Assembly: GCA_903884455.1 (NCBI GenBank)
Contig: CAISEW010000037.1
Span: 80,161-144,160 of the forward strand
Direction of reading: 5' to 3'
Origin: an uncultured Chloroflexota bacterium
GTDB taxonomy: Bacteria; Chloroflexota; Dehalococcoidia; GIF9; AB-539-J10
Length of the DNA stretch: 64,000 bases
Position 1 is the stretch's first letter; each line of letters opens with the position of its first letter. Below are positions 3,919 to 64,000 of the stretch, one piece after another. The translations under genes were made by a program, and so were the position numbers. The notes below the pieces were generated by a model, which was not told the origin of the DNA, did no database searches, and saw only the letters and a program-made list of their open reading frames with translations.

Positions 3919-5058
3919 CTAGCCTCTCACCATCTCCAGAAATCTCTCAAATAGATACATGTTGTCCAGCGGGCCCGGGGAAGCTTCGGAGTGATATTGA
4001 ATGGACAGGATGGGCAAGTCCTGGTGGCGAAGGCCCTCCACCGTGCCATCGTTTAAGTTGATGTGGCTGACTTCGAGTCCTCCTTTTAGAGTATCGGCGT
4101 CTATAGCATAGCCATGGTTCTGAGCGGTAATATAGACCCTGCTGGTAGCTAAATCACGCACAGGATGGTTGCCGCCGCGGTGCCCAAATTTGAGCTTAAA
4201 GGTCTGGGCTCCCAAGGCTTTGCCTATAAGCTGATGCCCCAGGCATATGCCCATTATGGGCTTCTTACCTATAAGATTTCTTACCGTCTCCGCTATGTCA
4301 CCAAGGAGGGCAGGGTCGCCAGGGCCAGGTGATAAGACAATGCCATCGGGATTTAAGGCCAAGACATCTTTTGCTGAAGTAGTGCACGAGATAGCGGTTG
4401 CCTGGCAGCCCAGTTGACTCAAAATGCGCAGTATATTGTATTTCAAGCCATAGTCGATAACCGCGATATGAGATTGCTTCGCTTCGCCCTCACCTTTATC
4501 CTCTCCCTTCAAGGGAGAGGAAATCAAATTCGCAGTGGCAGGCGCATGGGATTGCCACTCATATGCCTTCTCGGTGCTAACCTGATGAACAAAATCAGTA
4601 ACATCATATCTGGGTAAGGTTTTTAGCTCTTCTGACGCCTCCTCAACTGTCATTTCCGAAGTGACCATTCCCATCATGGCTCCTTGCAAGCGTAAGTGAC
4701 GAGTCAAGGCACGGGTATCTATGCCGCTGATGCCAGGAATGCCGTAGGCCAGCAGAAATTCGTGCAAAGTCCGGGTGCTTTGCCAGTGGCTGGGGCGAGG
4801 GCAATATTCTCGAACAGCTAAACCTCTGACCTGAATTTGCTTGGATTCAAAATCGGATTCGTTGATGCCATAGTTGCCAATCAAAGGATAAGTAGGGACC
4901 AGGATTTGGCCAGCGAAGGACGGGTCGGTGAGCATTTCCTGATAACCGGTCATGCTCGTACTGAATACTACCTCACCATAGGTAGTAGCCTTGGCGCCAA
5001 AGGAATGGCCTTCATAAACCGACCCATCTTCGAGGACTAAAATCGCTTTCCTAGCCAT
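3919..5058 (-). CDS. carA: carbamoyl-phosphate synthase small subunit (glutamine amidotransferase)
   Basis: 379 aa; class-I GATase motif GICLGHQ; immediately upstream of carB; carries an extra ~18-aa segment (SSPLKGEDKGEGEAKQSH) coded by a repeat insertion. Confidence 0.93.
   Translation of the reverse strand: MARKAILVLEDGSVYEGHSFGAKATTYGEVVFSTSMTGYQEMLTDPSFAGQILVPTYPLIGNYGINESDFESKQIQVRGLAVREYCPRPSHWQSTRTLHEFLLAYGIPGISGIDTRALTRHLRLQGAMMGMVTSEMTVEEASEELKTLPRYDVTDFVHQVSTEKAYEWQSHAPATANLISSPLKGEDKGEGEAKQSHIAVIDYGLKYNILRILSQLGCQATAISCTTSAKDVLALNPDGIVLSPGPGDPALLGDIAETVRNLIGKKPIMGICLGHQLIGKALGAQTFKLKFGHRGGNHPVRDLATSRVYITAQNHGYAIDADTLKGGLEVSHINLNDGTVEGLRHQDLPILSIQYHSEASPGPLDNMYLFERFLEMVRG
4467..4530. 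repeat. in-frame palindromic repeat insertion in carA (GCGAAGCGAAGCAATC core plus CTCTCCCTTCAAGGGAGAG palindrome)
   Basis: Shares a ~22-bp core with the pyrK copy and the intergenic MITE-like clusters; encodes ..GEAKQSHIA.. just as the pyrK copy encodes ..SEAKQSHIA.. Confidence 0.55.
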
Positions 5059-5073
5059 GAGGTTCTTTTACCC

Positions 5074-6432
5074 TCACTTATGCCTCCTTCCTTCAGGGGA
5101 GAGGGCAAGGGATAACAAAGAATCATCTACATAAACTATCCTACCATTTGCTATGGTCGCCATTACCTTGCCCTTAAACTGATAGCCATCGTAAGGAGTA
5201 TTTTTGCCTTTGGAGGCGAAATTGCGGCTATTCACTATCCATTCCCGGTCAGGGTCAAGTATGGTGATATTAGCTGGGGCGCCTGTCTTTAAGGTGCCTA
5301 GTTCATCATTTCTACCAATGACTTTTGCTGGCTCACAGGTTAGCTTAGAAATCAGTTGAGTAAGGCTTATTTCTCCTTGGTGCACCAAGCTCATGAGGCA
5401 GCCCAAAGCAGTTTCAAAGCCACTGATGCCAAAAGCAGCTAGCTCTAGCCCACAATTTTTGTCCGCCAGGGTATGCGGTGCATGGTCGGTGGCGATAGCA
5501 GCGATTGTTCCGTCTTTAAGTCCCTTGATTAGGACTTGGACATCCTCTTTGGTGCGCAGGGGCGGGTTTACTTTGGCATTGGTATCAAAGGGTTTGTTGG
5601 GGGACTCGCCCGCAATTCTTTCTTCGGTTAACGTCAGGTGATGAGGTGTGACCTCGGCGGTTACCGGAATCCCTTCTTTCCTGGCACGGCGAATAAGCTC
5701 CACAGAGCCCTTGGTGCTTACATGGGCAATGTGAAGTCTGGCCTTGGTCAACTTTGCCAGAATCAAGTCACGGGCTACCATAACCTCCTCAGCGGCTGCG
5801 GGAATTCCTTTTAGTCCCAACTTAGCAGACATCTGACCTTCGTTTATGATTCCATTGTCACTCAGCGCCTTATCCTCACAATGGTCGATGATTGGCAAGC
5901 CCAGGTCTCGGCTATACTCCAGGGCACGACGCATAAGCTGTGAACTTGCCACGGGGTCGCCATCGTCGCTAAAAGCAACCACCCCGGCTTCAGCCAGCCC
6001 AGCCATATCGGTTAATTCCTCGCCTTTCCTACCTTTAGTGATACAGCCTATGGGAAGAACGGCAACCAAACTATCCTTGCTCGCTTTTCGCTTCACCCGG
6101 GCTACAGCAGATGGGCTATCTAGGGGCGGATTGGTATTTGCCATACAGCAGACAGTGGTAAAACCACCTATGGCGGCTGCTTTTGTCCCTGTGGCGATTG
6201 TTTCCTTATCCTCAAAACCTGGCTCCCGGAGATGACAGTGGAGGTCTATAAAGCTGGGACAGACAATTAGTCCCGTGGCATCTAAATTCTGCGCCTTGCT
6301 TGAAATGACAGTGCCCCCTACCTGCACAATCTTGCCCTCAGCAATAAGCAAGTCACCAACCTGGTCTATGCCCTGGCTGGGGTCAATTATATGGCCGCCG
6401 CGGATAAGCAGAGAGATAACTTCCTTATTCAT
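5074..6432 (-). CDS. pyrC: dihydroorotase
   Basis: 452 aa; metal-binding DLHCHLREPG motif; position inside the pyr operon. Confidence 0.9.
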   Translation of the reverse strand: MNKEVISLLIRGGHIIDPSQGIDQVGDLLIAEGKIVQVGGTVISSKAQNLDATGLIVCPSFIDLHCHLREPGFEDKETIATGTKAAAIGGFTTVCCMANTNPPLDSPSAVARVKRKASKDSLVAVLPIGCITKGRKGEELTDMAGLAEAGVVAFSDDGDPVASSQLMRRALEYSRDLGLPIIDHCEDKALSDNGIINEGQMSAKLGLKGIPAAAEEVMVARDLILAKLTKARLHIAHVSTKGSVELIRRARKEGIPVTAEVTPHHLTLTEERIAGESPNKPFDTNAKVNPPLRTKEDVQVLIKGLKDGTIAAIATDHAPHTLADKNCGLELAAFGISGFETALGCLMSLVHQGEISLTQLISKLTCEPAKVIGRNDELGTLKTGAPANITILDPDREWIVNSRNFASKGKNTPYDGYQFKGKVMATIANGRIVYVDDSLLSLALSPEGRRHK

Positions 6433-7832
6433 TGTCTGATAAAGCTGCTGGGTTTGAAATGCTGAGCCTGAGCTTCATTTTCCGAAGCAAAAATAATCAG
6501 ATTCTCGGGTTTAATCTTCCGGGCCAAGTGGCTATCAGCGCTGTGATATCTCTTGTTCTCCAACCTCCCTTCATGCCAATCTGAACTGGCGACATATTGA
6601 GGATGAAGCTCATGGTCACAATAGATACACCGCAACGTTAAAGGCTCGCGACTTACTATTTTGAACTCAGGCTTTATGTATCTTACTTCGGTTTGCTGGT
6701 TTGAGACACAGTTTATATTGGGGCACTTGCCCCCGGAATCTCGCTTATAAACGGGATAATCTACCTTCCTGATAAAGGAATCCTCCTCTTCAGGAATTGT
6801 GACTTCCTTGGCGCCCAATAAGAGAGCCAAGAGCGCCATTCTGACGGGCATCCCGTAAGCTGCCTGCTTGAAATACATGCTTCTGGGGTCGGCATCCACA
6901 TCATGGGCCAACTCATCAACACGGGGCAGCGGATGCATAACCAATGTTTTCTTAAACTCCTTTCCTTTAAGGAGTTTTTTATCTACCACCAGGTAGCCTT
7001 TTTTCAACTCTTGTTCCTCCACCGTGGGCGCTTGTCTTTCCTTTTGAAGCCTGGTGACATAAAGGGCATCAACCCCTGCCTTCAGTTCCACTCGGATACT
7101 TAGGTCAGGCAACATGGCAAGTTGATGTGGGCTACTGGGAGTCAAGTATATGGCATCGATAGGGAAGAGCCTCCTTTCAGGTTCTTGGTTCAGATTCCTA
7201 CATCTTTTCAGCTCGCCTTTATATTCTGTGTTTAGTCTCCTTAGGACATGCTCCGGCATCTCAAGCCCGGGGCCGGGGCAGAAAAGGATAGTGGCACCAA
7301 ACCTGGCTAAGGCATAGATCAGGGAATGGACTGTTCGCCCGTGTTTCAAGTCTCCCCACAGAGCAATTCTGAGCCCCTTAATAGTCTGCCTTTCTTTTCT
7401 AAGGGTGTAGAGGTCGCATAAGGTTTGGGTGGGGTGTTCATGGCTCCCGTCGCCAGCATTTATCACAGGGACGCCAGCGTAGTCGGCAACCACCCTGGCT
7501 GCTCCTTCCCAGGGATGTCTGATAACAATTATATCGGCATAGCTTCCGACCACTTTCGCCATATCAGCAATGCTTTCGCCTTTGGCCAGGGAGCTTGCTC
7601 CTATGTCGACGGCAGTTATGACACGACCTCCGAGTCTGAGCATCCCAGCTTCAAAAGACAGTCTTGTTCTGGTGCTTGGCTCAAAAAACAAGCTGGCCAT
7701 AATCTTCCCCTGGCATAGTCCGGCCTGCTCATTTGGAGAGTTCGCCATCTCGTCTGCTAAGGAAAACAATGCTTCGATTTCCCCGTTGGATAAATCATCT
7801 ATAGTCACCAGATTTCTACTTGACAGATTCAT
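6429..7832 (-). CDS. pyrB: aspartate carbamoyltransferase catalytic chain fused to a PyrI-type zinc domain
   Basis: 467 aa. The N-terminal ~310 aa carry ATCase motifs (STRTR, HPxQ-like, HPLPR). The C-terminus carries CPNINC...LRCIYCDHEL, matching the PyrI zinc domain (E. coli CPNSNC...LKCKYCEKEF). No PyrI allosteric domain is visible. Confidence 0.85.
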   Translation of the reverse strand: MNLSSRNLVTIDDLSNGEIEALFSLADEMANSPNEQAGLCQGKIMASLFFEPSTRTRLSFEAGMLRLGGRVITAVDIGASSLAKGESIADMAKVVGSYADIIVIRHPWEGAARVVADYAGVPVINAGDGSHEHPTQTLCDLYTLRKERQTIKGLRIALWGDLKHGRTVHSLIYALARFGATILFCPGPGLEMPEHVLRRLNTEYKGELKRCRNLNQEPERRLFPIDAIYLTPSSPHQLAMLPDLSIRVELKAGVDALYVTRLQKERQAPTVEEQELKKGYLVVDKKLLKGKEFKKTLVMHPLPRVDELAHDVDADPRSMYFKQAAYGMPVRMALLALLLGAKEVTIPEEEDSFIRKVDYPVYKRDSGGKCPNINCVSNQQTEVRYIKPEFKIVSREPLTLRCIYCDHELHPQYVASSDWHEGRLENKRYHSADSHLARKIKPENLIIFASENEAQAQHFKPSSFIRQ

Positions 7833-47975: not shown

Positions 47976-48131
47976 GCTTTGCTCGCCTCCTCCCCTCCTT
48001 TATTATACCCCTGTTTCCCAAGCCTGTGATACAAGCTGCTCCAGGTCATTGCCCTGAGTAGTAGGAACCATCGGATACTTCTCCGTTTTGGTCAATGCCG
48101 TTTAAATAATGTAGTTGCCCAATTTCTTTTG

Positions 48132-48159
48132 CCCCACAAAATCTATGGATTTTGTGGGG
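48132..48159. repeat. perfect 12-bp stem palindrome CCCCACAAAATC-tatg-GATTTTGTGGGG
   Basis: Seen directly; lies between the polX start and the repeat cluster. Confidence 0.6.
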
Positions 48160-48249
48160 ACCCTGGGTTTCCAACTAAATCAGAGATTTGGTTGGATGAG
48201 AATTTATTGGGCTCCCTCCTTCTGTTATTGCGCGGTGGGCTCTCCCTTT

Positions 48250-48368
48250 GTCATTGTGAGAAGTCCTCTCCTTTTTGTCATTGCGAGGAGCGAAGCGACG
48301 AAGCAATCCCGGCGGGGCTGTTGTGGGCTGAGATTGCCACGCCCCGACAAGTCGGGGCTCGCAATGAC
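48250..48368. repeat. cluster of MITE-like palindromic repeat units (terminal inverted repeats GTCATTGCGAGG / CCTCGCAATGAC)
   Basis: GTCATTGTGAG at 48250, GTCATTGCGAGGAGCGAAGCGACGAAGCAATCCC at 48276, and inverted CTCGCAATGAC at 48358 with an internal GCCCCGAC-aagt-GTCGGGGC hairpin. It is near-identical in inverted orientation to 51778-51861. Confidence 0.65.
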
Positions 48369-48498
48369 AAAAAATGGAAGGCTTGTGATGACCAGGTGTG
48401 CCTGATAAATCAGGCAACTAGAAGAATGTGGAAGCAGGAAGCTTTTAGAATGTCGAAAGCGAAAGGAAAATCAAAAATGAACAGCCTGCTGATGAAGA

Positions 48499-48532
48499 CG
48501 AGGTCGTTGCCGGCTAGCCGGCAACGACCTCG
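48499..48532. repeat. perfect 16-bp stem / 2-nt loop hairpin CGAGGTCGTTGCCGGC-ta-GCCGGCAACGACCTCG
   Basis: Seen directly; ~160 bp downstream of the minus-strand secreted-protein gene. Confidence 0.6.
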
Positions 48533-48693
48533 GGATTATCCAAGAGCTTGCACTCGCTATGTTCAGGTTCAGCTGCCTGGACCGTAAAACTGGTTACCCC
48601 CAGCATTCACCACTCTGCCAGGGAGGCCATGATTATTGGCAAAATTCTCATCGGCCTCGCTGGGCCCCTGCTCCTACTTCCTGCCATTTTCGT

Positions 48694-49242
48694 CTAATAA
48701 GACGTTGTACCAGACCTGTCCTTAACTATACCAGTGGTACCTGGAGTCTTGGCATTCTTATCTTTGTCGCTGGGTCCCTGCTTCCACTCTGTGCCTGCTT
48801 CGTCTTTGCCATCTGGTGGGTGCCAATTGGGGTGAGTATGGAACTCGCCAACCACTTGCCCACCCACTGGCGGCATAGGGGGAGTAGCGTTGATCCCGCT
48901 ACGATTGCCGGCAGGCCAGCGCCCAACTGTTAGATTGCCATCCGCATCTTCATAGATCCACCCCCCTTCCTCATGCCGGGTAGTAGCATTGTCTGCATTT
49001 GAATCATTCCAGGCCGCACCAATCGCTGCCTTGACAGTGGGGTCATTGGCTATCTGCTCCGCAGTTTTGTTGGTTCCCAGAGGGCCAATCTCGGCAGCGA
49101 CAATGGGACCAATGGCCGTCTGCGCGACAGCAGGTACGGCCAGCACGGCTGGACTCCAGGCAATGCAGGCTATTAGCACGCACAATAAGGCTATGCATGA
49201 TTTCCAACTAGCTTTCACATTTCCTCCTTTTCCCATTGACAT
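48694..49242 (-). CDS. secreted hypothetical protein with HTHP motif
   Basis: 182 aa; N-terminal signal peptide/TM (CIALLCVLIACIAWSPAVLA); C-terminal GEFHTHPNWHPPDG motif, possibly a metal-binding or JAB-like site. Confidence 0.45.
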   Translation of the reverse strand: MSMGKGGNVKASWKSCIALLCVLIACIAWSPAVLAVPAVAQTAIGPIVAAEIGPLGTNKTAEQIANDPTVKAAIGAAWNDSNADNATTRHEEGGWIYEDADGNLTVGRWPAGNRSGINATPPMPPVGGQVVGEFHTHPNWHPPDGKDEAGTEWKQGPSDKDKNAKTPGTTGIVKDRSGTTSY

Positions 49243-49274
49243 TTCAAGCTGTTCTGTATCTGGTTGGGGTTCAC

Positions 49275-49577
49275 TTACTCGGTGTAGTAGATGTTGGTGA
49301 CATTACCGGTCGTCTTGTCCACCCAGACATGAGGCTCACCACCGCGCAGTAGAGGCGAGGAATATGGGAAAGAAATGTGCCAATAAGTTGCTTCCTCCAC
49401 GACCACGGTATCACGGCCATCCAGAGACATTACCCCGTCATCTACCACCTCTTGGGTGGCGATTGTGATTGCTTGCTCACGGCTAATACCAGTTGAGCCA
49501 CAGCCAGCAAAGGTGAGCATCAGGGTTATTACTGCTGTCCCCACCAGCAGCCACACTTTGTATCTCCTTTTTTGCAT
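49275..49577 (-). CDS. small lipoprotein with PepSY-like domain
   Basis: 100 aa; lipobox LTFAGC; PepSY-like pattern (EQAITIATQEV..G..V..V..EE..YWHISF). Confidence 0.45.
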   Translation of the reverse strand: MQKRRYKVWLLVGTAVITLMLTFAGCGSTGISREQAITIATQEVVDDGVMSLDGRDTVVVEEATYWHISFPYSSPLLRGGEPHVWVDKTTGNVTNIYYTE

Positions 49578-49780
49578 TTCCTACCTCCTTCCCTCGTCTT
49601 GGGACCACGAGGGTAATAATTTAGTTTCCTCAATACCTTACTCTAATAAAAGAGCCGACCGTGTCTGGCACGGTCGGCTCTTGGCATAACAAGTGCGACA
49701 CCCCTCTGGGGGTGGTGTATCACCCTTATACCAGTGGGTAAACTTTTCCCTATGACCCAGCACTCTACATTACCCTAATT

Positions 49781-51448
49781 TCACCATATAGCTCTCGTAG
49801 CTTCAAGTACCCCAACAATGGGGTCAACCAGGAGCTCTCTGACCAGGGTCCTCACAAAGTTGTGTTCTGATATGAAGTTTGCGATAGGTGGGCTGGTTCG
49901 GTAATAGAGGTCGACAAGTCGAGAGCCCACGGTGCTTTTCAGCAACACGTCATCTCGGAACGCTCGCAACACATCGAGCTGTTTAGCGGTGGGAGTTCCG
50001 TAGGCTGCGGTGGCGATGAAGCACCCGCCGGATGGGGGTGTTTCTGACTTAATCTGGAATTTGGCTTTGATAACATAGTCTGTGTTCGCGGTGATATTGA
50101 TAGTGGTTGTGGCGGCAGTGGCAGCAGCGATAGTGCTCACGTCGCCAGTCCAGTTGACAAACTCGTAGCCGCTAGCTGGCGTGGCTGTGAGGTTGACCAC
50201 GGTGGGACCAGTGCCGGCAGAAAAGAACAAAGTAGTCGTGGAAATTTGGACGCCGGTTGCAGGGTCCGAGGCAGTGGTGAATGCATTGTGGCCGGGAGTA
50301 GTTACCGAGCCCATGGTAGAGCTGCTGTGTATCGTCAGACAATATTTAAGCGGCGGTAAATACTTCCATATTTGTGCACTGCCGTCGATTTGATAGGAGA
50401 CGCTACCAATATAATACGCGACTGTATACTGAGGTCCGCCGGGCCATGTATGCCCAATGTCATATCCCCCAACGCTGCCCGTCTCCCAAAAAAGTACCAC
50501 CCGGGTCCCGTTCGTTCCTTCGCTGTAAACAGAGCGGGTAATTGTGCTTCCGTCTATGTCATCATCAGTCCATACGGTTGTCACTGGGCCGGTGGTTGTA
50601 TTGTTGACCTCACGCCAGTAAGTGATAGTGTCAGGGGTAGAATAACCAAAGTTATTGCACATGTGAACAGGGCGGCCCTCGGGGGTGCATTCCCCTGCCT
50701 CTGGAATGATTGGGTCTGTTGGGCTCCGTATCGCAATCACGGTTGTTGGAGCCGGAGTCGTAGTGGCGTTCCCCAGATTTAAGTCCATTGGTCCAGTAAC
50801 TGGTCCGATGCCTGCAAACACGCCCGCCAGGTTAAAGGCCAGGTAATATGAAAACATGGCGCCGTTGGACATTCCCGTGGCATAGATTCGGCTTGTATTA
50901 ATCGCATAGTTAGCTTCAAACCAGTCAACTATATCCGCAGTAAATCCCACATCATCAACACCTGCGCAATATTGCAAGGGAGCAATTGGTGTTCCATTGA
51001 TGGCACCACAATTCCACATGATGTTAGAACCAGTCAAGCCTGGTAAAGTCCAATTGTTGGCAGTCATGCAGTCACTCCACCTCGAATCATGTTCATCTAA
51101 TGCTGTGGCATCAGGATACACGGCAATAAACCCTTCTGCATCGGCGAGTGCATCAAACTTGGTTAGATCGATTTGTCCCGGTCCGCTGCTGCCCAGGCCG
51201 TGAAACGAAAACAACAGGGGAACCGGCGTGGCGTTGTTTGTGACGTTGCAACTGGACGGGATATAGTATTCAAATGTGCGGTTAAAAACCCAACTGCTAT
51301 TTACAGTAGAGGTCTCCGTCATCCAACCCGTGTGAAGCCCGTGTGTGTACTCAGGTGGGGGCGCGGCGACAACAATAGAACTCCCCACAGGTAACACCAT
51401 CGCCATGATTACCAAAAGAGCAATAATGCAATATTTCTTTAAAGCCAT
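49781..51448 (-). CDS. secreted alpha/beta-hydrolase esterase (PHB-depolymerase/LpqC-like) with conserved Cys-containing C-terminal domain
   Basis: 555 aa; signal peptide; FSFHGLGSSG and nucleophile motif GMSNGAM; Thr/Ala-rich linker; C-terminal GGCFIATAAYGTP...LRAFRDDVL module. Confidence 0.6.
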   Translation of the reverse strand: MALKKYCIIALLVIMAMVLPVGSSIVVAAPPPEYTHGLHTGWMTETSTVNSSWVFNRTFEYYIPSSCNVTNNATPVPLLFSFHGLGSSGPGQIDLTKFDALADAEGFIAVYPDATALDEHDSRWSDCMTANNWTLPGLTGSNIMWNCGAINGTPIAPLQYCAGVDDVGFTADIVDWFEANYAINTSRIYATGMSNGAMFSYYLAFNLAGVFAGIGPVTGPMDLNLGNATTTPAPTTVIAIRSPTDPIIPEAGECTPEGRPVHMCNNFGYSTPDTITYWREVNNTTTGPVTTVWTDDDIDGSTITRSVYSEGTNGTRVVLFWETGSVGGYDIGHTWPGGPQYTVAYYIGSVSYQIDGSAQIWKYLPPLKYCLTIHSSSTMGSVTTPGHNAFTTASDPATGVQISTTTLFFSAGTGPTVVNLTATPASGYEFVNWTGDVSTIAAATAATTTINITANTDYVIKAKFQIKSETPPSGGCFIATAAYGTPTAKQLDVLRAFRDDVLLKSTVGSRLVDLYYRTSPPIANFISEHNFVRTLVRELLVDPIVGVLEATRAIW

Positions 51449-51777
51449 TTTTTCCTCCTCCCTTTTTAGATGCTTTTTACATAAAAAGGCATAATAAAAC
51501 TCATAGAACTATATTTACTCTATAACCTTCACCTCCTTTATGGTACGTATCTACTAAATGCCAACAACTATTGCTTACAAACTTATACGCACAGGTTTTT
51601 AAAAGCCTGGCTGTTACGGTACCCTGGAAATTGCTGCAGATGGTATTTTGTCATTAGAAGAAAGACGTCAGGAAACTTTTCCCCGGATTACAAACCTTTA
51701 AAAGTTAATTATAGCAGATTTCTGCTTCGAATGTCAACTGCTTGTACTCGTTCATATGATTAGTGACACCCTTTTTT

Positions 51778-51939
51778 GTCGTTGCGAGCCCCGACCTGTC
51801 GGGGCGTGGCAATCTCATGCCCCACCGAGATTGCTTTGTCGCCTTCGGCTCCTCGCAATGACAGAAGGGGGATTGCGGAGCCTGTTCCGAAGCGTAAGCG
51901 AGGAATCTCGTTCCTCGCAATGACAGGGAGGTCATTGTC
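51778..51939. repeat. second cluster of the MITE-like repeat family (inverted relative to 48250-48368) plus partial units
   Basis: The reverse complement of 51778-51861 aligns with 48276-48368 with a few mismatches; further CCTCGCAATGAC and GTCATTGTC units run to 51939. Confidence 0.65.
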
Positions 51940-52113
51940 CAACGTTGCAAATTTATGAAGTGTCACCCATCTATCTGAACTAGATCACTGCTAACGCTGC
52001 ATGGTTGCTGCTTGAACGGATTGTCTAAATAGTCGTTTATGGTACACTAATGCCATTAGAAGGCAGTTTGGGAACCATGGATTAATAAAAAGGCGTAATC
52101 CGTCGCAACTGGA

Positions 52114-56514: not shown

Positions 56515-56730
56515 ATGAAGGCAGTTGAATCGAGAACTGAAATTTACTTGATGGCGCTACAATCGCTTTCCAAGGCAGAGAAGGAGGCGGTCATTGTCCG
56601 TTTGTTGGAAGATCCTCAGCTCAGAGAAGATATTCTCGATTTAGCTCTTATCCAGCAGCGGCAAGGAGAGCCATCCAGGCCTTTTACAGAATACCTAGCT
56701 GACAGAAAAGAGCGGGCTCGTAAGGCGTGA
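56515..56730 (+). CDS. putative type II antitoxin (partner of the RelE/ParE toxin)
   Basis: 71 aa; 4-bp overlap (GTGA) with the downstream toxin gene; AAGGGAGG RBS. Confidence 0.55.
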   Translation: MKAVESRTEIYLMALQSLSKAEKEAVIVRLLEDPQLREDILDLALIQQRQGEPSRPFTEYLADRKERARKA

Positions 56731-56981
56731 AGTACCAGGTCCGAATCATCCCTTCCGCTGAGAAGGAGATGGATAAGCTTCCAGCACTAATTCATAGACA
56801 CATCAGTAGAAAAATCCTCTTGTTGGAAGACAATCCCAGGCCCAGAGGCGCAAAGAAGCTTAGCGGTCGTGAAGAATATCGTCTCAGAGCGGGCGATTAT
56901 AGGGTCTTATATACTATCGATGACAAGGGACATGTGGTTACAGTCTTTGCTGTAGGCCATCGACGGGAAGTATATCGATAA
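56727..56981 (+). CDS. RelE/ParE family type II toxin
   Basis: 84 aa; YRLRAGDYRVLYTIDDKGHVVTVFAVGHRREVYR is the classic RelE/ParE C-terminal signature. Confidence 0.8.
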   Translation: MKYQVRIIPSAEKEMDKLPALIHRHISRKILLLEDNPRPRGAKKLSGREEYRLRAGDYRVLYTIDDKGHVVTVFAVGHRREVYR

Positions 56982-57009: not shown

Positions 57010-57837
57010 ATGCCCGAACTCCCTGAAGTAGAGACAATTAAGAACGAGCTTTCGCCCTGGGTTGTGGGGCAAAGCTTCACTCAAGTTACTATCTTTGATG
57101 CCGAGCTGGTGTGTGGTAGTTCTGCTGAAGAAGTCCGTCGCGGGTTAATCGAGCAGAAGGTAGAAAGCCTGGGACGCCGGGGAAAGTATCTCATCTTCCA
57201 CCTGTCAAATGGCAGGTCACTGGTTATACATCTCAGGATGACCGGCAGCTTGCTGTTGAATCCCAAGGAAGTTGAGCGCTATGCCCGGGCGGTTTTTCAC
57301 TTCTCCAGTGGGCACCGCCTTGTTTTCAGCGACCGGCGCCGGCTGGGGGTAATGTGGCTGGTAGACGATGCCAGTACTGTGGTCGGCAAGCTGGGCCCCG
57401 AGCCGCTGGAGGAAAGCTTTACCCCGGGTATTCTGGGGCAAAGATTAAGCCGGCATCACATCCCCGTAAAAGCCGCGCTTCTCGACCAATGTATCGTCGC
57501 GGGAATCGGCAATATGTATGCCGATGAAGCCCTCTTTGCCGCTCGGATTCACCCTCTGAGAAAAACAGACGCCCTGTCGCCTGCAGAAGTGCAGACCCTA
57601 CATCACTGCGTTCGTAGGGTTCTTCAGGCAGCCATCGGCAGCAAAGGCGCCAGCGTGGATACCTACGTCCGCCCCGAGGGCGAGCTGGGCACAGCTCATT
57701 TCGATTTTAAGGTTGCTCATAAGGGAGGCGAGCCCTGCCCCATTTGCGGCAGCACCATCGAGCGGCTCCCCGTGCAGAACCGCGGCACCTACTTCTGCCC
57801 TAGATGTCAACCTTTTGATTCCGGGCCTCTGATATAA
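57010..57837 (+). CDS. fpg: formamidopyrimidine-DNA glycosylase
   Basis: 275 aa; N-terminal MPELPEVE catalytic motif, H2TH region, C-terminal zinc finger CPICG..CPRCQ. Confidence 0.9.
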   Translation: MPELPEVETIKNELSPWVVGQSFTQVTIFDAELVCGSSAEEVRRGLIEQKVESLGRRGKYLIFHLSNGRSLVIHLRMTGSLLLNPKEVERYARAVFHFSSGHRLVFSDRRRLGVMWLVDDASTVVGKLGPEPLEESFTPGILGQRLSRHHIPVKAALLDQCIVAGIGNMYADEALFAARIHPLRKTDALSPAEVQTLHHCVRRVLQAAIGSKGASVDTYVRPEGELGTAHFDFKVAHKGGEPCPICGSTIERLPVQNRGTYFCPRCQPFDSGPLI

Positions 57838-57877
57838 AAGCTGGCAGCGACTGGATTTGCACCAGCGACTAAAGGCT
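57780..57877. repeat. copy A of a ~98-bp imperfect direct repeat (last 58 bp of fpg plus 40 bp downstream)
   Basis: Aligns with 59876-59973 at ~90% identity; contains a T-arm-like GCTGG-ATTTGCA-CCAGC motif. Confidence 0.7.
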
Positions 57878-58072
57878 TATGACAGCCAGGCTCGAAAGCT
57901 GAATTACATAGCGTCTTCGAATTCACGCTGTGATAACAAGCATCGAGAGCGTTGTGCCTTCAAAAATTGCAGGGAATAGCGGCTTCTTCAGCCGTTATTC
58001 CTTCGTCTTGAACAACATCTCAAGAGGAGGTCCGACAGATTATGTTTCCACATTTTCACGCTCATCGCCAGC

Positions 58073-59791: not shown

Positions 59792-59875
59792 TACTCCCCT
59801 CCTGCTCGGTGGTTCAAGAACTTTACTAAAATTAATCTATGCCAGTCAAGAATATTCTGCTACATAGACACAGGG

Positions 59876-59973
59876 CCGTGGCACCTGCTTCTGCCCCAGA
59901 TGCCAACCCTCTGGTTCCGGGCCTCTGATATAAAAGCTGGCAGCGGCTGGATTCGAACCAGCGACTAAGGGCT
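59876..59973. repeat. copy B of the fpg 3'-end direct repeat (includes a degenerate duplicate of the Fpg C-terminal codons ..GTCFCPRCQPSGSGPLI*)
   Basis: Aligns with 57780-57877; here the internal motif is GCTGG-ATTCGAA-CCAGC (tRNA T-arm-like on the reverse strand). Confidence 0.7.
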
Positions 59974-59974
59974 A

Positions 59975-59997
59975 GGGAAAAACATTGGGATGTGTGT
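59975..59997. repeat. 23-bp direct repeat GGAAAAACATTGGGATGTGTGT (second copy at 63277-63299, 21/23 identical)
   Basis: Seen directly; the two copies bracket the low-GC HEPN/PLD islet. Confidence 0.55.
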
Positions 59998-60135
59998 CAT
60001 TTCATGCGTATGTTACGGTATAATGATTTTGAATAGATTTAACGGCTGAATCAAAGTCTTGTTCATGGTTGTTCTGCGAAAAAGACGTTGAGTATTCTGC
60101 TTTTGCTCTATGAGCACCTTTCAGACACAGATTCT

Positions 60136-61284
60136 CTAATTCTCAAAAGGTATGTCTGTCGGCTCCGGGGTTGGCTCGACTTCTTGAAACTTGTCAATCG
60201 ACTCTTTTAGAGAATCCTTCCAGAATCCTTCATAAATTTGCACGGCATAATCTGCAAGCTCATAGAAGCGTTTGTCGCCCGCCTTCAAATACTTGTCAAT
60301 TGTACTTACAGCTAGATTCGCCAAAGCTGTGCCTTGCATTTCGCTCAGGGTGGACAATAATGGGTCGCTGAAGTACTCAAATACATAGTCTTGCTCATTC
60401 CTATTCGAAGACTTAAGTTTTTTCAGAAGTGCCCAAATGAAATCGTTTTTCATGAGGAATACGTGCAGATGTTCGTTGCACCACGTTCCGAATGCTCCCT
60501 TGATACACTTACCAGAGGACTTGATATACTCTCCTTCAGCAACTGACTGGAGGAACCTATTCTCACTTCTCAATTTCGCTGATTCATCTAAACGCGTCCA
60601 GAATTCAATCGGAAAAATTCTCGTTGAGAATCGCACCGAATCGTTGGAGTCGGTGCGATTCAATTCCTCCGACACGACTTCTGCTAGTTTTGACATCTCA
60701 TCTTCTTCTAGCTTTGCTACAAGAACCTCACCAAATAGTATTAGTTTTCTGATTTCTCCCTTTTCTTTTCTTCTATAAACCTCTATCATCACATCCAGCC
60801 TCTGCTTGGGAGGGATTATCTGCACGAGTAACTCTGCGTATCTTTTTCTTTCGACAAAAGAGGGGTCGAAAACTCTGTCCAAGAACTCAGTTTTGGAGAA
60901 TGCACCCTTGGCGCCTCCTATTATTCTCAGAAGATAATCGATGAAAAAAATTATCGCATCAGCATCTTCCTTTGTGTCAACATGCTTTCCATGACTTCTC
61001 GGATTGCGGATACTTTGATACAACCCTAACAATAAGTTCTCCGTTCCTTTTTGAATGCTGCGCTCGGATTCTGTCTGCAATTTGTTGACTTTCAATTTCG
61101 GTGATTTGCCGCCGAGAGCTTGCCCAACCAATGCAACACCGTCACTTTGGAGGCCTGCCTTTTCTCTGATACAGTCCCCCAAATAGTACATGGCATCTAG
61201 TATTGCGCCGGTATAGTTACCGGATTCATACGCAGCCTCAATTGCAGCCCATAGGGGTTCAGCTAAGCCCGTCTTTAAACTCAT
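60136..61284 (-). CDS. HEPN-motif protein (N-terminal TIGR02391/Abi-like domain with R-x4-H motif RNPRSH) plus ~250-aa uncharacterised C-terminal domain
   Basis: 382 aa; N-terminal ~130 aa with a conserved ...LLGLYQSIRNPRSHG... HEPN Rx4-6H signature; low GC. Confidence 0.55.
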   Translation of the reverse strand: MSLKTGLAEPLWAAIEAAYESGNYTGAILDAMYYLGDCIREKAGLQSDGVALVGQALGGKSPKLKVNKLQTESERSIQKGTENLLLGLYQSIRNPRSHGKHVDTKEDADAIIFFIDYLLRIIGGAKGAFSKTEFLDRVFDPSFVERKRYAELLVQIIPPKQRLDVMIEVYRRKEKGEIRKLILFGEVLVAKLEEDEMSKLAEVVSEELNRTDSNDSVRFSTRIFPIEFWTRLDESAKLRSENRFLQSVAEGEYIKSSGKCIKGAFGTWCNEHLHVFLMKNDFIWALLKKLKSSNRNEQDYVFEYFSDPLLSTLSEMQGTALANLAVSTIDKYLKAGDKRFYELADYAVQIYEGFWKDSLKESIDKFQEVEPTPEPTDIPFEN

Positions 61285-61446
61285 TTCGATTCCTTTAAAT
61301 CAATTCACTCAATCTCAGAAGTCGCTTCATAAGTGCTGCAATTCTTTCTGTGTAAGAGAGGATAAATTCCGCGTTTGTTTGTCCACGAAAGTATTATAAC
61401 ATAACATTGAGACTAATTCATGTCTTGAATGCTACAATAGGTAAAC

Positions 61447-61560
61447 ATGGAGAAAAAAGACGAATTAACAGAAGCTTTAAAAGCTATCAAGAATATAGCG
61501 GATAATACATCTTGGTTTAGAGATACTCCTCACTACTGGGCATTTGTCTTATTTGAATAA
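61447..61560 (+). CDS. possible small ORF (37 aa, MEKKDELTEALKAIKNIADNTSWFRDTPHYWAFVLFE)
   Basis: Below the ORF-track cutoff; preceded by an extended -10-like TGCTACAAT (61431-61439) and followed 26 bp later by the next gene; could be a leader peptide or a spurious ORF. Confidence 0.2.
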   Translation: MEKKDELTEALKAIKNIADNTSWFRDTPHYWAFVLFE

Positions 61561-61586
61561 GCCAAAATCTAAGGGGGTAAAGAATA

Positions 61587-61952
61587 ATGATTCAAGAAGG
61601 ATACCGTAGTAAGGCAACAAAATGGGGTAATTATACAGTTAGAAAAGTGGTACGACTTAATAAACCTGTAGAATGCTTCAGCAAAGACAAAGGGAGGGCC
61701 CTTTTCAACCCTACAATGGTTAAACTTGAGTGGGATGTTCCACCTTCAGGCGATAAGAATGAATTCTGGTTCCCATACTGGATTACCTGGGTTGATGTTG
61801 ATGGCAAGGAGAGATATGGGCAATATTCTCCCATGATTGGTGAGAAAGCCTTACTTGAACTTTTGAAGGGTGCAATAGTGCAGGACTTCTTTAGTAGAGA
61901 TTTTTTGCACGACTTGAATGCTACTATTTCACAAAAGTTAGGTAATAAATGA
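61587..61952 (+). CDS. hypothetical protein (121 aa)
   Basis: ORF with AAGGGGGT RBS 8 nt upstream of the ATG; no recognisable motifs; upstream of the PLD nuclease gene. Confidence 0.4.
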   Translation: MIQEGYRSKATKWGNYTVRKVVRLNKPVECFSKDKGRALFNPTMVKLEWDVPPSGDKNEFWFPYWITWVDVDGKERYGQYSPMIGEKALLELLKGAIVQDFFSRDFLHDLNATISQKLGNK

Positions 61953-62108
61953 GTGTAATAGATGTCTTCTATGCTTAGATTTGGTTTATTAATCCATGCA
62001 AGAGACTAAACCCCTTATGTGACCTCACCAAATCATCAATAGTTCTTTTATGCCATAAATTCCTTACTAAGCTTGCACTATTGGGATTGACTCTCTAAAC
62101 TATTAAGC

Positions 62109-62852
62109 GTGGCAACGTTCTTGACAACTCGAGGCACCATATCTGAATTAGAGAAGATTATCAACAATGCGGTAGATGGTGTTGCATTGATATCTCCATT
62201 TATAAAGATACCTGATAGCTTATTCCAAAATCTAAAAGCGGCTGACCAACGAGGTGTAAGAATATCGATAGTATACGGCAAGAGTCAACTTGAGCCGGAA
62301 ACATCAAAACGGCTTACGGAGTTGAGAAATGCAAGGCTATATTTCCTTGAGAATCTACATGCCAAGTGCTATTTCAACGAAAGGTCGATGGTGATAACCT
62401 CCCTGAATCTATACGACTCTTCCGAGGTAAACAACCGGGAAATGGGTGTACTGGTAACTAAACAGGAGGACGAAGCCGTCTACAATGGAGCAATCCGAGA
62501 ATCGGGGATGATAATTGCTCTGGCTGACCGGTGTGATTTAAGTGCACAAGTTGCTAAGCAGAAAAAGGCCCGCCTGCGAAAACAGAGAGGAATAAATGAG
62601 CCTGAGGGTACTTGGCGCAGGGGCCCATCCAATGTTTTTTCAGCATTTTTCGGTAGAAATAACGCCTTCTGTATAGGTTGCAGAACAAAGATTGATTTCG
62701 ACGAGTATAGGCCATATTGCGTCGCATGTTACGCTAAGTGGGCACACGATAACTGGCAAGAAGCAAAGTACTGTCATGAATGTGGTCGAGAGTCAATAAC
62801 CACTATTAATAAGCCTCGATGCCGTTCTTGTTATGGAGAAGCTTCGAAATAA
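62109..62852 (+). CDS. PLD-family (single HKD motif) nuclease with C-terminal double zinc ribbon
   Basis: 247 aa; HKD-like motif LHAKCYFNERSMVITSLNL (HxK-x4-E-x6-TSxN); C-terminal CIGC...CVAC and CHEC...CRSC Cys pairs; start codon (GTG at 62109) uncertain. Confidence 0.6.
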   Translation: MATFLTTRGTISELEKIINNAVDGVALISPFIKIPDSLFQNLKAADQRGVRISIVYGKSQLEPETSKRLTELRNARLYFLENLHAKCYFNERSMVITSLNLYDSSEVNNREMGVLVTKQEDEAVYNGAIRESGMIIALADRCDLSAQVAKQKKARLRKQRGINEPEGTWRRGPSNVFSAFFGRNNAFCIGCRTKIDFDEYRPYCVACYAKWAHDNWQEAKYCHECGRESITTINKPRCRSCYGEASK

Positions 62853-62971
62853 TTTCAGATATTGTCCACTGGACTATACCTCTTATGTGCCTCTATCGCA
62901 TCATAGCATCCCACAGCCTGGCAATATTGATTAGTCACCATCAACGTTAACAGAAAGCCTACCTCAAATTA

Positions 62972-63199
62972 CTATCTTCTGTTTCTAATAGCTTCAATTA
63001 CTGAAAGAAGAACTCCGACACCTATGAGAGGGTAACCTATCCGACGAGAATCACCGAAAATAATCCCCAGAACCACTAAGCACATACCAAGTATAGCGAG
63101 GTTTGAGGGTTGTTGATATTGCCTTCCCCTGGCTATAAGCAAAAGCACCACAATAACGACCAGGGCAACGATTGAAATGGCAATCCACACTGGTTCCAT
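62972..63199 (-). CDS. small membrane protein (2 TM)
   Basis: 75 aa, two hydrophobic helices separated by RGRQYQQ; GGAGG-containing RBS upstream of the ATG. Confidence 0.3.
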   Translation of the reverse strand: MEPVWIAISIVALVVIVVLLLIARGRQYQQPSNLAILGMCLVVLGIIFGDSRRIGYPLIGVGVLLSVIEAIRNRR

Positions 63200-63276
63200 G
63201 AATACCTCCTTTTAGAAGTACTGGCTACTTTCAAAAATTATAGCACTGAGGGCAAAGCGAAGATAGATTATTACCA

Positions 63277-63299
63277 GGAAAAAACATCGGGATGTATGT
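63277..63299. repeat. second copy of the 23-bp direct repeat (GGAAAAAACATCGGGATGTATGT)
   Basis: Matches 59975-59997. Confidence 0.55.
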
Positions 63300-63505
63300 T
63301 AACCCATGATAAAAACTATTTGCAGTCATGTCAACTGGCCTCACCTGTCCCTCCGGGGTTTGACCTTAAACATCGCAACGAACTCGTAGGTATTGGAAAT
63401 GGCTAAAGTGACCAACACAATCAACTTCATCTAACCTGGGGTTTTGTGGCTTCGATTGCGGGTGCCTAAGGTGAGCTATCTTACTTTCGAAATGACGCTC
63501 TGTGT

Positions 63506-63552
63506 CACAAGTAAGTATACTGACACTATATAAATGTCAGCTCTTACTTGTG
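63506..63552. repeat. nested palindrome CACAAGTAAG..CTGACA-n9-TGTCAG..CTTACTTGTG
   Basis: Seen directly; 10-bp outer and 6-bp inner inverted repeats with an AT-rich centre (TATATAAA); candidate operator or structured RNA. Confidence 0.5.
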
Positions 63553-63646
63553 TGATAGCCATCACACTGCAACGGCTCCATGACACTCAATACCCTCAAA
63601 GAGCATAGATTAGCATGGAAGCCACCAAAAAGATCGCCTACTAATC

Positions 63647-63796
63647 TTTGACTAGGTGGCTCTTGCCGATGCGGAAGATCTTGGTGCCACAAGCCGGGCA
63701 GATATCCCGAGTTGCCGGTCTGCCATTCTTCATGATTATGGCCTTGGGATTTTTCATCTCCCTCTTGGTCCTGCACTTAACACAATAAGCTTGCAT
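63647..63796 (-). CDS. small zinc-ribbon protein (DUF5679-like)
   Basis: 49-aa ORF MQAYCVKCRTKREMKNPKAIIMKNGRPATRDICPACGTKIFRIGKSHLV with a GGAGGTG RBS 6 nt upstream; CxxC...CxxC ribbon; preferred over the overlapping 79-aa ORF-track ORF in another frame. Confidence 0.55.
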
Positions 63797-64000
63797 TGGC
63801 CCACCTCCTTTTGATTACAAACGATATAGCATTCCCACCCACGATGTCAACTGTTTATCACAGGTTGCAGGTAAAACTCGTTCTCGTATCCAATATAAAG
63901 GTCACGTGGCTATAACTCGCCCCAGCAATCATCGCGATGGGGCTTCCCAGTCACACTCGTTTTCCGTTAGATAGAAGACAAAGAGATTTCTTATCATGCG

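Follow-up and report, generated by a model that had tools for sequence, protein, structure and literature searches.

A HEPN protein with an SSB-like tail and its neighbours in a variable interval of a Dehalococcoidia genome

By architecture, the closest known system to the protein at the centre of this paper is DARNA (PD-T7-3), an abortive-infection protein in which an N-terminal HEPN domain is followed by a Pds5-like helical C-terminal domain; it forms a dodecamer, its C-terminal domain binds single-stranded DNA offered by the SSB (single-stranded-DNA-binding protein) of phage, not host, and it cleaves tRNA anticodon loops (bioRxiv 10.64898/2026.02.22.705581). The protein that we compare with it, HEPN382, has 382 amino acids and is encoded by an uncultured Chloroflexota bacterium of the Dehalococcoidia (GenBank assembly GCA_903884455.1, contig CAISEW010000037.1), of which we analysed the 64,000 nucleotides from position 80,161 to 144,160. 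That whole stretch is the window, and positions are counted from its first letter. Near the right end of the window, HEPN382 shares an AT-rich islet with a protein of 121 residues (p121) and a phospholipase D (PLD)-family protein of 247 residues (PLD247), and an initial annotation, made without database searches, had proposed that the three form one undescribed defence module, acquired between two 23-bp direct repeats.

Are these genes one machine, or did they come to lie side by side? We argue that they came to lie side by side. Comparison with related loci suggests that the three are independently mobile single-gene modules, not one system, and we consider it likely that the islet belongs to a mosaic hotspot in which HEPN382 is a lone abortive-infection RNase. 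Of the earlier interpretation, the idea of horizontally acquired, defence-type cargo survives, as do the genes, the domains and the low G+C content on which it was built; the single new system, and both the identity and the meaning given to the repeats, do not.

HEPN382, PLD247 and the systems they resemble

The N-terminal residues 9-122 of HEPN382 match the family Hypoth_Ymh (PF09509; E 1.8e-29, 102.5 bits against a cut-off of 25) and TIGR02391 (69.1 bits against 39.45), and the R-x4-H motif that had marked the protein as HEPN, RNPRSH (R93...H98), is indeed unchanged throughout an alignment of 38 homologues, whose identity is 43-83%. The AlphaFold2 model, with a predicted local distance difference test score (pLDDT) of 90, is all-helical: the N-terminal domain takes the four-helix up-down HEPN fold, and residues ~130-365 are modelled as a HEAT/ARM-like alpha-solenoid, with weak ARM-repeat matches only in a Foldseek search of the PDB. 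A sequence search of the PDB found no solved homologue. The family (218 database hits) is scattered in patches across bacterial phyla and some archaea, including Lokiarchaeota, Ignavibacteriae and Zixibacteria.

Like DARNA, HEPN382 is a single polypeptide from a stand-alone gene, an N-terminal Rx4H HEPN domain joined to a predicted all-helical, HEAT/Pds5-like C-terminal domain, and like DARNA, which itself acts by abortive infection, it is probably linked to the biology of single-stranded-DNA-binding proteins. The two nevertheless show no sequence-family relation (no PD-T7-3 model is among the PADLOC matches at E <= 0.1), differ in length (382 against 456 amino acids) and differ in the HEPN domain, which in HEPN382 is of the Ymh family; nor did we find the SSB-tip-like tail of HEPN382, described below, reported for DARNA. 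By this analogy, we take HEPN382 to be, most likely, an abortive-infection RNase of the DARNA kind that consists of a single protein, its C-terminal half and tail serving to sense replication-linked components or to tether it to them. It would act alone and stay inactive until a cue linked to replication is sensed by the C-terminal half (single-stranded DNA, an SSB-bound state and a protein gripping SSB tails are all candidates), whereupon, on the model of DARNA, it would cleave host RNA, probably tRNA.

Two other descriptions come close. Proteins of the Ymh family occur alone or as fusions, often in restriction-modification neighbourhoods (Anantharaman et al. 2013, PMC3710099). HEPN382 is a member by profile score and keeps the Rx4H motif, but the fusions listed there (paraMORC, AbiJ-NTD1/2 and AbiTii) are all N-terminal to HEPN, and the list does not include a HEAT-like solenoid at the C-terminus followed by an SSB-tip tail. 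At E <= 0.1 the PADLOC matches of HEPN382 were PD-Lambda-3_B (two models), the Argonaute-associated Aga_HEPN and, weakly, Csm2. The best of them, PD-lambda-3 protein B (PDLC03987, E 4e-16 over the HEPN domain), is part of a two-gene, A + B abortive-infection system; the match covers positions 157-249 of a model of 270, so that HEPN is C-terminal there and N-terminal in HEPN382, and PADLOC found no A homologue among the islet proteins.

What appears to be new is a Ymh-HEPN family of putative RNases that combines a HEAT-like C-terminal domain with a conserved mimic of the SSB tip. The sequence [DE][DE][ILV]PF ends 104 of the 113 full-length HEPN382 homologues, mostly as exactly DDIPF, DDVPF or DDLPF, and follows an acidic, proline-rich linker that varies in length and sequence; AlphaFold2 predicts the last ~20 residues of HEPN382 to be disordered, with low pLDDT. 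Escherichia coli SSB ends in MDFDDDIPF, and its last Phe enters a hydrophobic, basic-rimmed pocket on ExoI, RecQ and chi (PMC3045619). To judge from the residues, the family tail copies this bacterial SSB C-terminal tip. Full-text literature searches returned no paper in which defence effectors, whether HEPN or other, are connected with an SSB C-terminal motif.

What would a defence RNase do with such a tail? A bolder proposal, which we put forward tentatively and hold to be a good deal less probable than the simple picture above, is that the HEPN382 family is a widespread single-protein immune RNase for which the SSB tip (DDIPF) is a functional bait or tether. In one version the tail would dock the RNase on host readers of SSB tails and so place it at replication forks; in the other it would be a decoy, and phage proteins that usurp SSB tails or block them would seize it. 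Either way, the HEAT-like domain would then release the HEPN active site, and the RNA of the cell would be cut. The window's own protein is an awkward witness, for this proposal as for the simpler picture. It ends in ...TDIPFEN and its nearest relatives in ...DLPFD(S/T), one to two residues past the Phe, and a single added Gly strongly weakens the binding of E. coli SSB to chi (PMC3045619); because residues follow the Phe, this sub-clade departs from the canonical form with its free carboxylate, and its tail may bind differently or not at all.

The motif was also seen elsewhere. Among ~2000 open reading frames (ORFs) that were screened, an SSB-tip-like motif was carried only by the HEPN382 family and two other proteins: an OLD-family (GajA/AriA-like) nuclease of 575 amino acids, encoded directly downstream of p121 in two loci (L096 1781-3508 and L097 1370-3097, plus strand), which ends in ...EDLPFD, and a DnaB helicase in a Hyphomicrobiales contig (L057 7909-9426, minus strand), which ends in ...DDVPF.

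PLD247 is, by its sequence, a Nuc-like HKD nuclease predicted to be homodimeric. The single-HKD reading was borne out by a PLDc_2 match (E 8.6e-12, 45.5 bits against a cut-off of 27) and by an HKD motif in which H84, K86, E91, T97, S98 and N100 are invariant in 30 homologues. The two CxxC...CxxC zinc ribbons claimed for its C-terminus are also real: in the same homologues six of the eight Cys are invariant and the other two conserved in at least 90%, and a Pfam scan gave weak double-zinc-ribbon matches. The ribbons probably supply nucleic-acid binding. Proteins with this C-terminus make up a family of their own, which numbers at least 610 and is mostly from Bacteroidota. A sequence search of the PDB found no solved relative of PLD247, and full-text literature searches yielded no paper on defence genes that combine PLD with a zinc ribbon.

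DrmC of DISARM and MkoB of Mokosh share a single PLDc_2-type HKD domain with PLD247 and are its best PADLOC matches (6.4e-11 and 6.8e-11), but neither system is present here. PLD247 scores 38.8 bits against NF038319, far under the equivalog cut-off of 133, and no DrmA, DrmB, DrmE or methylase gene lies near it; the Mokosh match is confined to the PLD domain of MkoB (positions 307-434 of 610), and the islet has no helicase or MkoA. The same PLD core was seen, with ~44% identity over residues 1-147, in 73 small (~10 kb) IMG/VR viral-type contigs from isolate genomes (L195-L267, the match mostly at 6001-6441), where it is followed by a different C-terminal domain of ~80 amino acids. Because these C-termini differ, the protein may be viewed as a nuclease core with exchangeable nucleic-acid-binding modules.

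Separate modules in a variable interval

Do the three genes travel together? We searched for the window's proteins in two sets of loci, 80 from genomes, mostly of Bacteroidota, centred on a PLD-family gene and flanked on either side by a median of 10 kb, and 78 from metagenomes, centred on p121. In these loci the genes showed no linkage to each other elsewhere. A p121 homologue lay within 10 kb of the PLD-zinc-ribbon gene at 0 of the 80 genome loci. Two of the 80 had a Ymh-HEPN protein, in one case of different architecture and 4 kb away among housekeeping genes, in the other a full-length homologue separated from PLD by 3 kb and about seven unrelated ORFs. PLD was present at one of the 78 p121 loci (L091, of the same lineage) and HEPN382 at none. 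Eight further independent contexts of HEPN382 homologues contained neither p121 nor PLD and no conserved partner; the gene stood between housekeeping genes, in a defence island with methyltransferase, SNase and reverse transcriptase, and once after the lysis genes where a Mu-like prophage ends. When neighbours were clustered, 153 of 225 ORFs around p121 and 356 of 423 around PLD were singletons.

The locus itself tells the same story in its relatives. There p121 adjoins TM75 (a 75-residue protein with two transmembrane segments, encoded to the right of PLD247 in the window) or a GyrI-like gene without PLD (L093, L099, L094), p121 and PLD occur together without the HEPN gene (L091), and PLD occurs with neither (L005/L011). 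Nucleotide homology divides the islet accordingly into separate blocks: the HEPN and PLD modules of Table 1, a p121 block at ~61573-61896, and a last block from 62951 onwards. In L003 the 1.57-kb HEPN block lies between HicAB and ParDE pairs, and in L005 the genes upstream of the PLD module are Nmad3 and a 317-residue protein. Homology around p121 likewise begins near ~61573 in many loci, the mark of a separately mobile module. We therefore read the three genes, on these alignments, as independently mobile single-gene modules that do not form one system; PLD247, whose upstream sequence is its own, probably works by itself or with neighbours that vary.

All the ORFs of the initial annotation, of 382, 37, 121, 247 and 75 amino acids, were located (Table 1), and the composition of the segment is foreign. 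From 59975 to 63299 the G+C content is 0.414, against 0.490 elsewhere and the lowest of any 3.3-kb segment in the 64 kb, and the tetranucleotide distance is the most deviant in the window (z = 4.0, rank 1 of 203). The three islet genes share a low G+C of 0.40-0.43, and third-codon-position G+C in islet genes is 0.37-0.47, against 0.60-0.72 for polA, fpg and a neighbouring acyl-CoA-dehydrogenase-like gene. Horizontal acquisition, as had been suggested, is supported both by this composition and by the site, which adjoins fpg and has acquired DNA repeatedly.

Table 1. Features of the islet and its surroundings (window positions)
Feature	Position	Strand	Basis or remark
103-nucleotide repeat, copy 1	57775-57877	+	Last 63 nucleotides of fpg plus decayed tRNA-Met 3' fragment; left edge of interval
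Acyl-CoA-dehydrogenase-like gene, 572 amino acids	58073-59791	-	Pfam Acyl-CoA_dh_1, Acyl-CoA_dh_M; separate cassette between the 103-nucleotide copies
103-nucleotide repeat, copy 2	59871-59973	+	fpg 3' end and tRNA-Met 3' fragment; T arm GCTGGTTCGAATCCAGC intact, minus strand
Left 23-bp repeat	59975-59997	+	Core of ~45-nucleotide intergenic element; outermost part of HEPN module
HEPN module	59976-61542	-	80.7% nucleotide identity over 1593 nucleotides to L003 5730-7306
HEPN382, 382 amino acids	60136-61284	-	ORF
37-residue ORF	61447-61560	+	ORF
p121, 121 amino acids	61587-61952	+	ORF
PLD module	62026-62947	+	Gene, 83 nucleotides of own upstream sequence and 3' tail; 83.6% nucleotide identity to L005 5918-6842
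PLD247, 247 amino acids	62109-62852	+	ORF
Probable tyrosine recombinase remnant	62862-62948	-	Last 29 codons (LMVTNQYCQAVGCYDAIEAHKRYSPVDNI*); translation and recurrence
Conserved core block: TM75, spacer, DUF5679	62951-63856	-	96-97% nucleotide identity in L269-L277
TM75, 75-residue protein with two transmembrane segments	62972-63199	-	ORF
Right 23-bp repeat	63277-63299	+	Core-genome copy of the same element, in TM75-DUF5679 spacer

Where does the interval end, and what has filled it? We retrieved nine contigs related to the Dehalococcoidia metagenome scaffold that includes the window (L001/L268) by way of the 51-residue DUF5679 protein encoded to the right of the islet. All nine (L269-L277) have DUF5679 and TM75 at the same spacing, the DUF5679 protein being identical and TM75 91-95% identical to ours, and in every one the conserved block has its edge at a point corresponding to window 62946-62951, just 3' of TM75. 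TM75 had been counted among the islet genes; the gene is there, but it and the right 23-bp repeat belong to the core, because both are kept at 96-97% in relatives with different variable genes. On this comparison we take the variable interval to run from the 3' end of fpg to ~62950 (57.8-62.95 kb).

The gene content of this interval is different in every relative examined, with at least eight different contents among close relatives. One holds Shedu SduA_C, AAA_15, paraMORC-like HATPase_c_3 and a D12 methyltransferase (L275 4033-8844), another an MJECL32-MJECL33 pair (L273 9724-11908), and others a radical-SAM/DUF5131 gene with a 433-residue protein, an alpha/beta hydrolase with a 2'-5' RNA ligase, four uncharacterized genes, or, in L005/L011, Nmad3, the 317-residue protein, PLD and others. 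An empty site, with fpg followed directly by TM75, was sought in the relatives and none was found, each having some insert.

The left side of the interval records how it was built. The initial annotation had suspected that another segment was inserted next to the 3' end of fpg, and it is real: two copies of a 103-nucleotide direct repeat, 87% identical, flank the acyl-CoA-dehydrogenase-like gene, which is present at the same site in L271 and L275 and absent from L272 and L005. On its minus strand the repeat carries a tRNA's T arm and acceptor strand, and copies of the tRNA-Met 3' end lie at 57836-57882 and 59933-59973. ARAGORN found no intact tRNA at the fpg-end repeat in the window, and an Rfam scan of the region found no credible RNA family; it is solely through L091 and L096, where ARAGORN finds tRNA-Met(CAT) intact at the corresponding place, that the repeat can be traced to tRNA-Met. 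In L269, L271 and L276 a fragment comprising the 3' two-thirds of tRNA-Met abuts TM75. The putative recombinase stump recurs too, in L005/L011, L091, L096/97, L115, L139, L163, L271 and L273/4, and the longer stump of L091 aligns with positions 144-167 of the 172 of Phage_integrase, in its C-terminal catalytic region, at E 0.078, below threshold.

All this recalls the islands that target tRNA genes: the 3' end of a tRNA stands in tandem direct repeats, what is probably the remnant of an integrase lies nearby, and the flanks are conserved while the content between them is hypervariable and includes genes for defence and toxin-antitoxin pairs. Here, however, the tRNA-Met is decayed, the repeat duplicates the last 63 nucleotides of fpg as well, no intact integrase is seen, and a ~45-nucleotide palindromic element lies at several breakpoints. 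The interval is best read, from its sequence, as a hypervariable hotspot built by integration at the tRNA-Met 3' end and later reshuffled. Serial integration would have left its record in the pieces of tRNA, in the doubled end of fpg and in the probable stump of a tyrosine integrase, and in our genome it would have produced the acyl-CoA-dehydrogenase-like cassette plus three low-G+C single-gene modules.

Several observations pull against this account and should be set beside it. No complete known defence system was found by PADLOC models among the islet proteins, so that we argue for a putative defence role from the type of the domains and their context. The site yielded C-terminal stumps of 29-48 codons but no integrase of full length. 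The contexts of HEPN382 were sampled in only about eight independent places, and here, as in L091, p121 and PLD lie next to each other in the same orientation, which may reflect a local functional pairing.

Some neighbours deserve mention in their own right. Four tiny genes of 47-58 residues (DUF3096, DUF5670 and DUF1508 in relatives) adjoin DUF5679 at L268 4594-5527, past the window end at what would be roughly 64270-65200; the cluster is kept in most relatives and deleted in L269/L270. Between polA and fpg, at 56515-56981 on the plus strand, lies a pair formed by a 71-residue ORF and a ParE-family toxin, which is kept in L005. Outside the fpg region, the next-highest tetranucleotide deviation falls at ~48000-52000, with a G+C dip to 0.398 at 51250-51749, and this segment may have been acquired too.

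Competing explanations

The alternative that fares best, unlikely though we think it, makes p121 a modular partner of nucleases (a sensor, regulator or inhibitor), working with PLD here and elsewhere with SRA-HNH, OLD-family, Mrr, NucS-like or PD-(D/E)XK proteins. The protein is of a rare family, and is certainly well conserved. It had 96 database hits and 99 representatives among 1.84 billion proteins, nearly all of 115-130 residues, with a beta-sheet and two C-terminal helices; neither it nor the 37-residue ORF has a family match in Pfam, NCBIfam or PADLOC, and p121 is absent from viral contigs. Among the genes directly beside it are those for SRA-HNH (at 8 loci, every one of this lineage), for OLD-family nucleases (at 3), for Mrr, NucS-like and PD-(D/E)XK proteins and for integrases, and most neighbours are unrelated. 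A search for domain fusions turned up three longer proteins with no Pfam or PADLOC match. It may serve one nuclease or another as an accessory, though support for this is weak, and we would describe p121 as a small, apparently stand-alone protein, often beside varying nucleases.

Two smaller matters attach to p121. One 437-residue protein from the p121 profile search, P0392, has a partial p121-like N-terminus and a longer C-terminal part with RNCLVH, an Rx4H-like motif; it matches nothing in Pfam or PADLOC, and its comparison with the HEPN382 family by hhalign was negative. The 37-residue ORF upstream matches, over its first 32 codons, the start of a divergent ORF of 85 residues beside the HEPN gene in L003, and the homology stops at 61542; because the ORF ends just past this boundary of the HEPN block, it is probably a truncated remnant or no gene at all.

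Perhaps these are not defence genes. HEPN382 could be an RNase that serves housekeeping or the response to stress, bound to the replisome or the SSB interactome, and PLD247 a nuclease of repair or competence, both simply lodged in a variable region; the DnaB helicase described above is a bona fide replication protein with an SSB-tip tail, several HEPN382 homologues stand among housekeeping genes, and no known defence system was matched as a whole. We rate this slightly below the p121 proposal. Set against it are the patchy distribution of HEPN382 across phyla, the absence of the genes from the closest relatives at the same locus together with their foreign composition, the homologues at a prophage end and in a defence island, and the Shedu and paraMORC genes that the same hotspot holds in a relative.

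That the HEPN protein, p121 and PLD are one undescribed defence system acquired as a unit, as their adjacency, their common low G+C and their uniformly conflict-type or uncharacterized character had invited one to think, we now find very improbable, given that the 80 and 78 sampled loci yielded a single co-occurrence of p121 with PLD and two of PLD with a Ymh-HEPN protein (neither adjacent), that HEPN382 has neither partner in its other sampled contexts and every partial combination exists at this very locus, that its gene comes as a discrete block also found between toxin-antitoxin pairs, and that it is transcribed divergently from the other two.

There remain the repeats, given as 21 identities in 23. 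The actual match is 20/23, or 21/24 with one more base. The pair is beyond chance all the same: no other match at <=3 mismatches exists in the window and none arose in shuffles, and the window as a whole has 3 direct pairs of this kind at 0.5-5 kb spacing against ~0.17 in Markov simulations. (Another 20/23 direct pair, GCAATGTGGGATTGCTTCGCTTC and GCGATATGAGATTGCTTCGCTTC, lies ~4 kb apart at 389-411 and 4463-4485.) Both repeats are copies of a ~45-nucleotide intergenic element, ATTATTACCA-GGRAAAAACATYGGGATGTNTGC-CATTCCATGCGTA, with an 18-bp palindrome, CAAACAT-NGGG-ATGTTTG. A third copy lies 2 kb past the window end, 3' of a GyrI-like gene, and the element recurs beside different genes of the lineage (L268 4407-4429, L269 5666-5688, L003 7285-7307, L011 18766-18788); in L003, where the genomic context is unrelated, the copy lies ~140 nucleotides 3' of the HEPN gene. 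In viral contigs the motif gave 17 scattered single matches, about chance level by a rough estimate.

Taking the repeats as attachment-site duplications of one integrated element of 3.3 kb (59975-63299) is now scarcely credible. The idea was first considered from their complementary flanks: the pair is real and rare, the left copy lacks the left flank of the element and the right copy the right flank, like attL and attR halves, and the complete element whose halves they resemble is found in L011 and L003. It was set aside because the right copy is core sequence. A motif search recovered that copy, at one mismatch and in the same half-form, in at least eight of the nine relatives (L269-L274, L276, L277), whatever their variable interval holds, so it predates the islet and is independent of it; the left copy travels with the HEPN gene into another genome, TM75 would lie inside the supposed element and is core, and the rest of its interior is a mosaic of separately mobile blocks. 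The repeats do not, then, bracket one insertion.

What might the ~45-nucleotide element be instead? A recombination junction, an operator and a weak terminator are all candidate roles. Several synteny breakpoints fall at or near its copies, and because they coincide the element may promote recombination. Directly upstream of the right repeat, at 63334-63306 on the minus strand, we noticed a strong promoter-like site of near-consensus sigma-70 type (TTGACA-17-TATCAT, 11/12), which would put the palindrome approximately at the predicted transcription start of TM75.

What the locus may offer

To reject a three-gene system is to save effort on a false lead, and two things of value remain. In this locus nature provides a clean example of a hotspot for defence and accessory genes, with well-defined flanks in fpg and TM75-DUF5679, and such a hotspot is useful for mining candidate systems in the Dehalococcoidia, a group with few genetic tools.

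The second is the tail of HEPN382. Several defence systems respond to phage SSB, among them DARNA, Hna, retron-Eco8 and AbpAB, and the tail therefore makes replication-hub mimicry in immunity a directly testable hypothesis. The tail of the OLD-family nuclease in L096 and L097 hints that the same trick may be used by more than one effector. If the bait or tether proposal were true, it would amount to a new kind of infection sensing, in which an immune protein would mimic the peptide of a replication hub.

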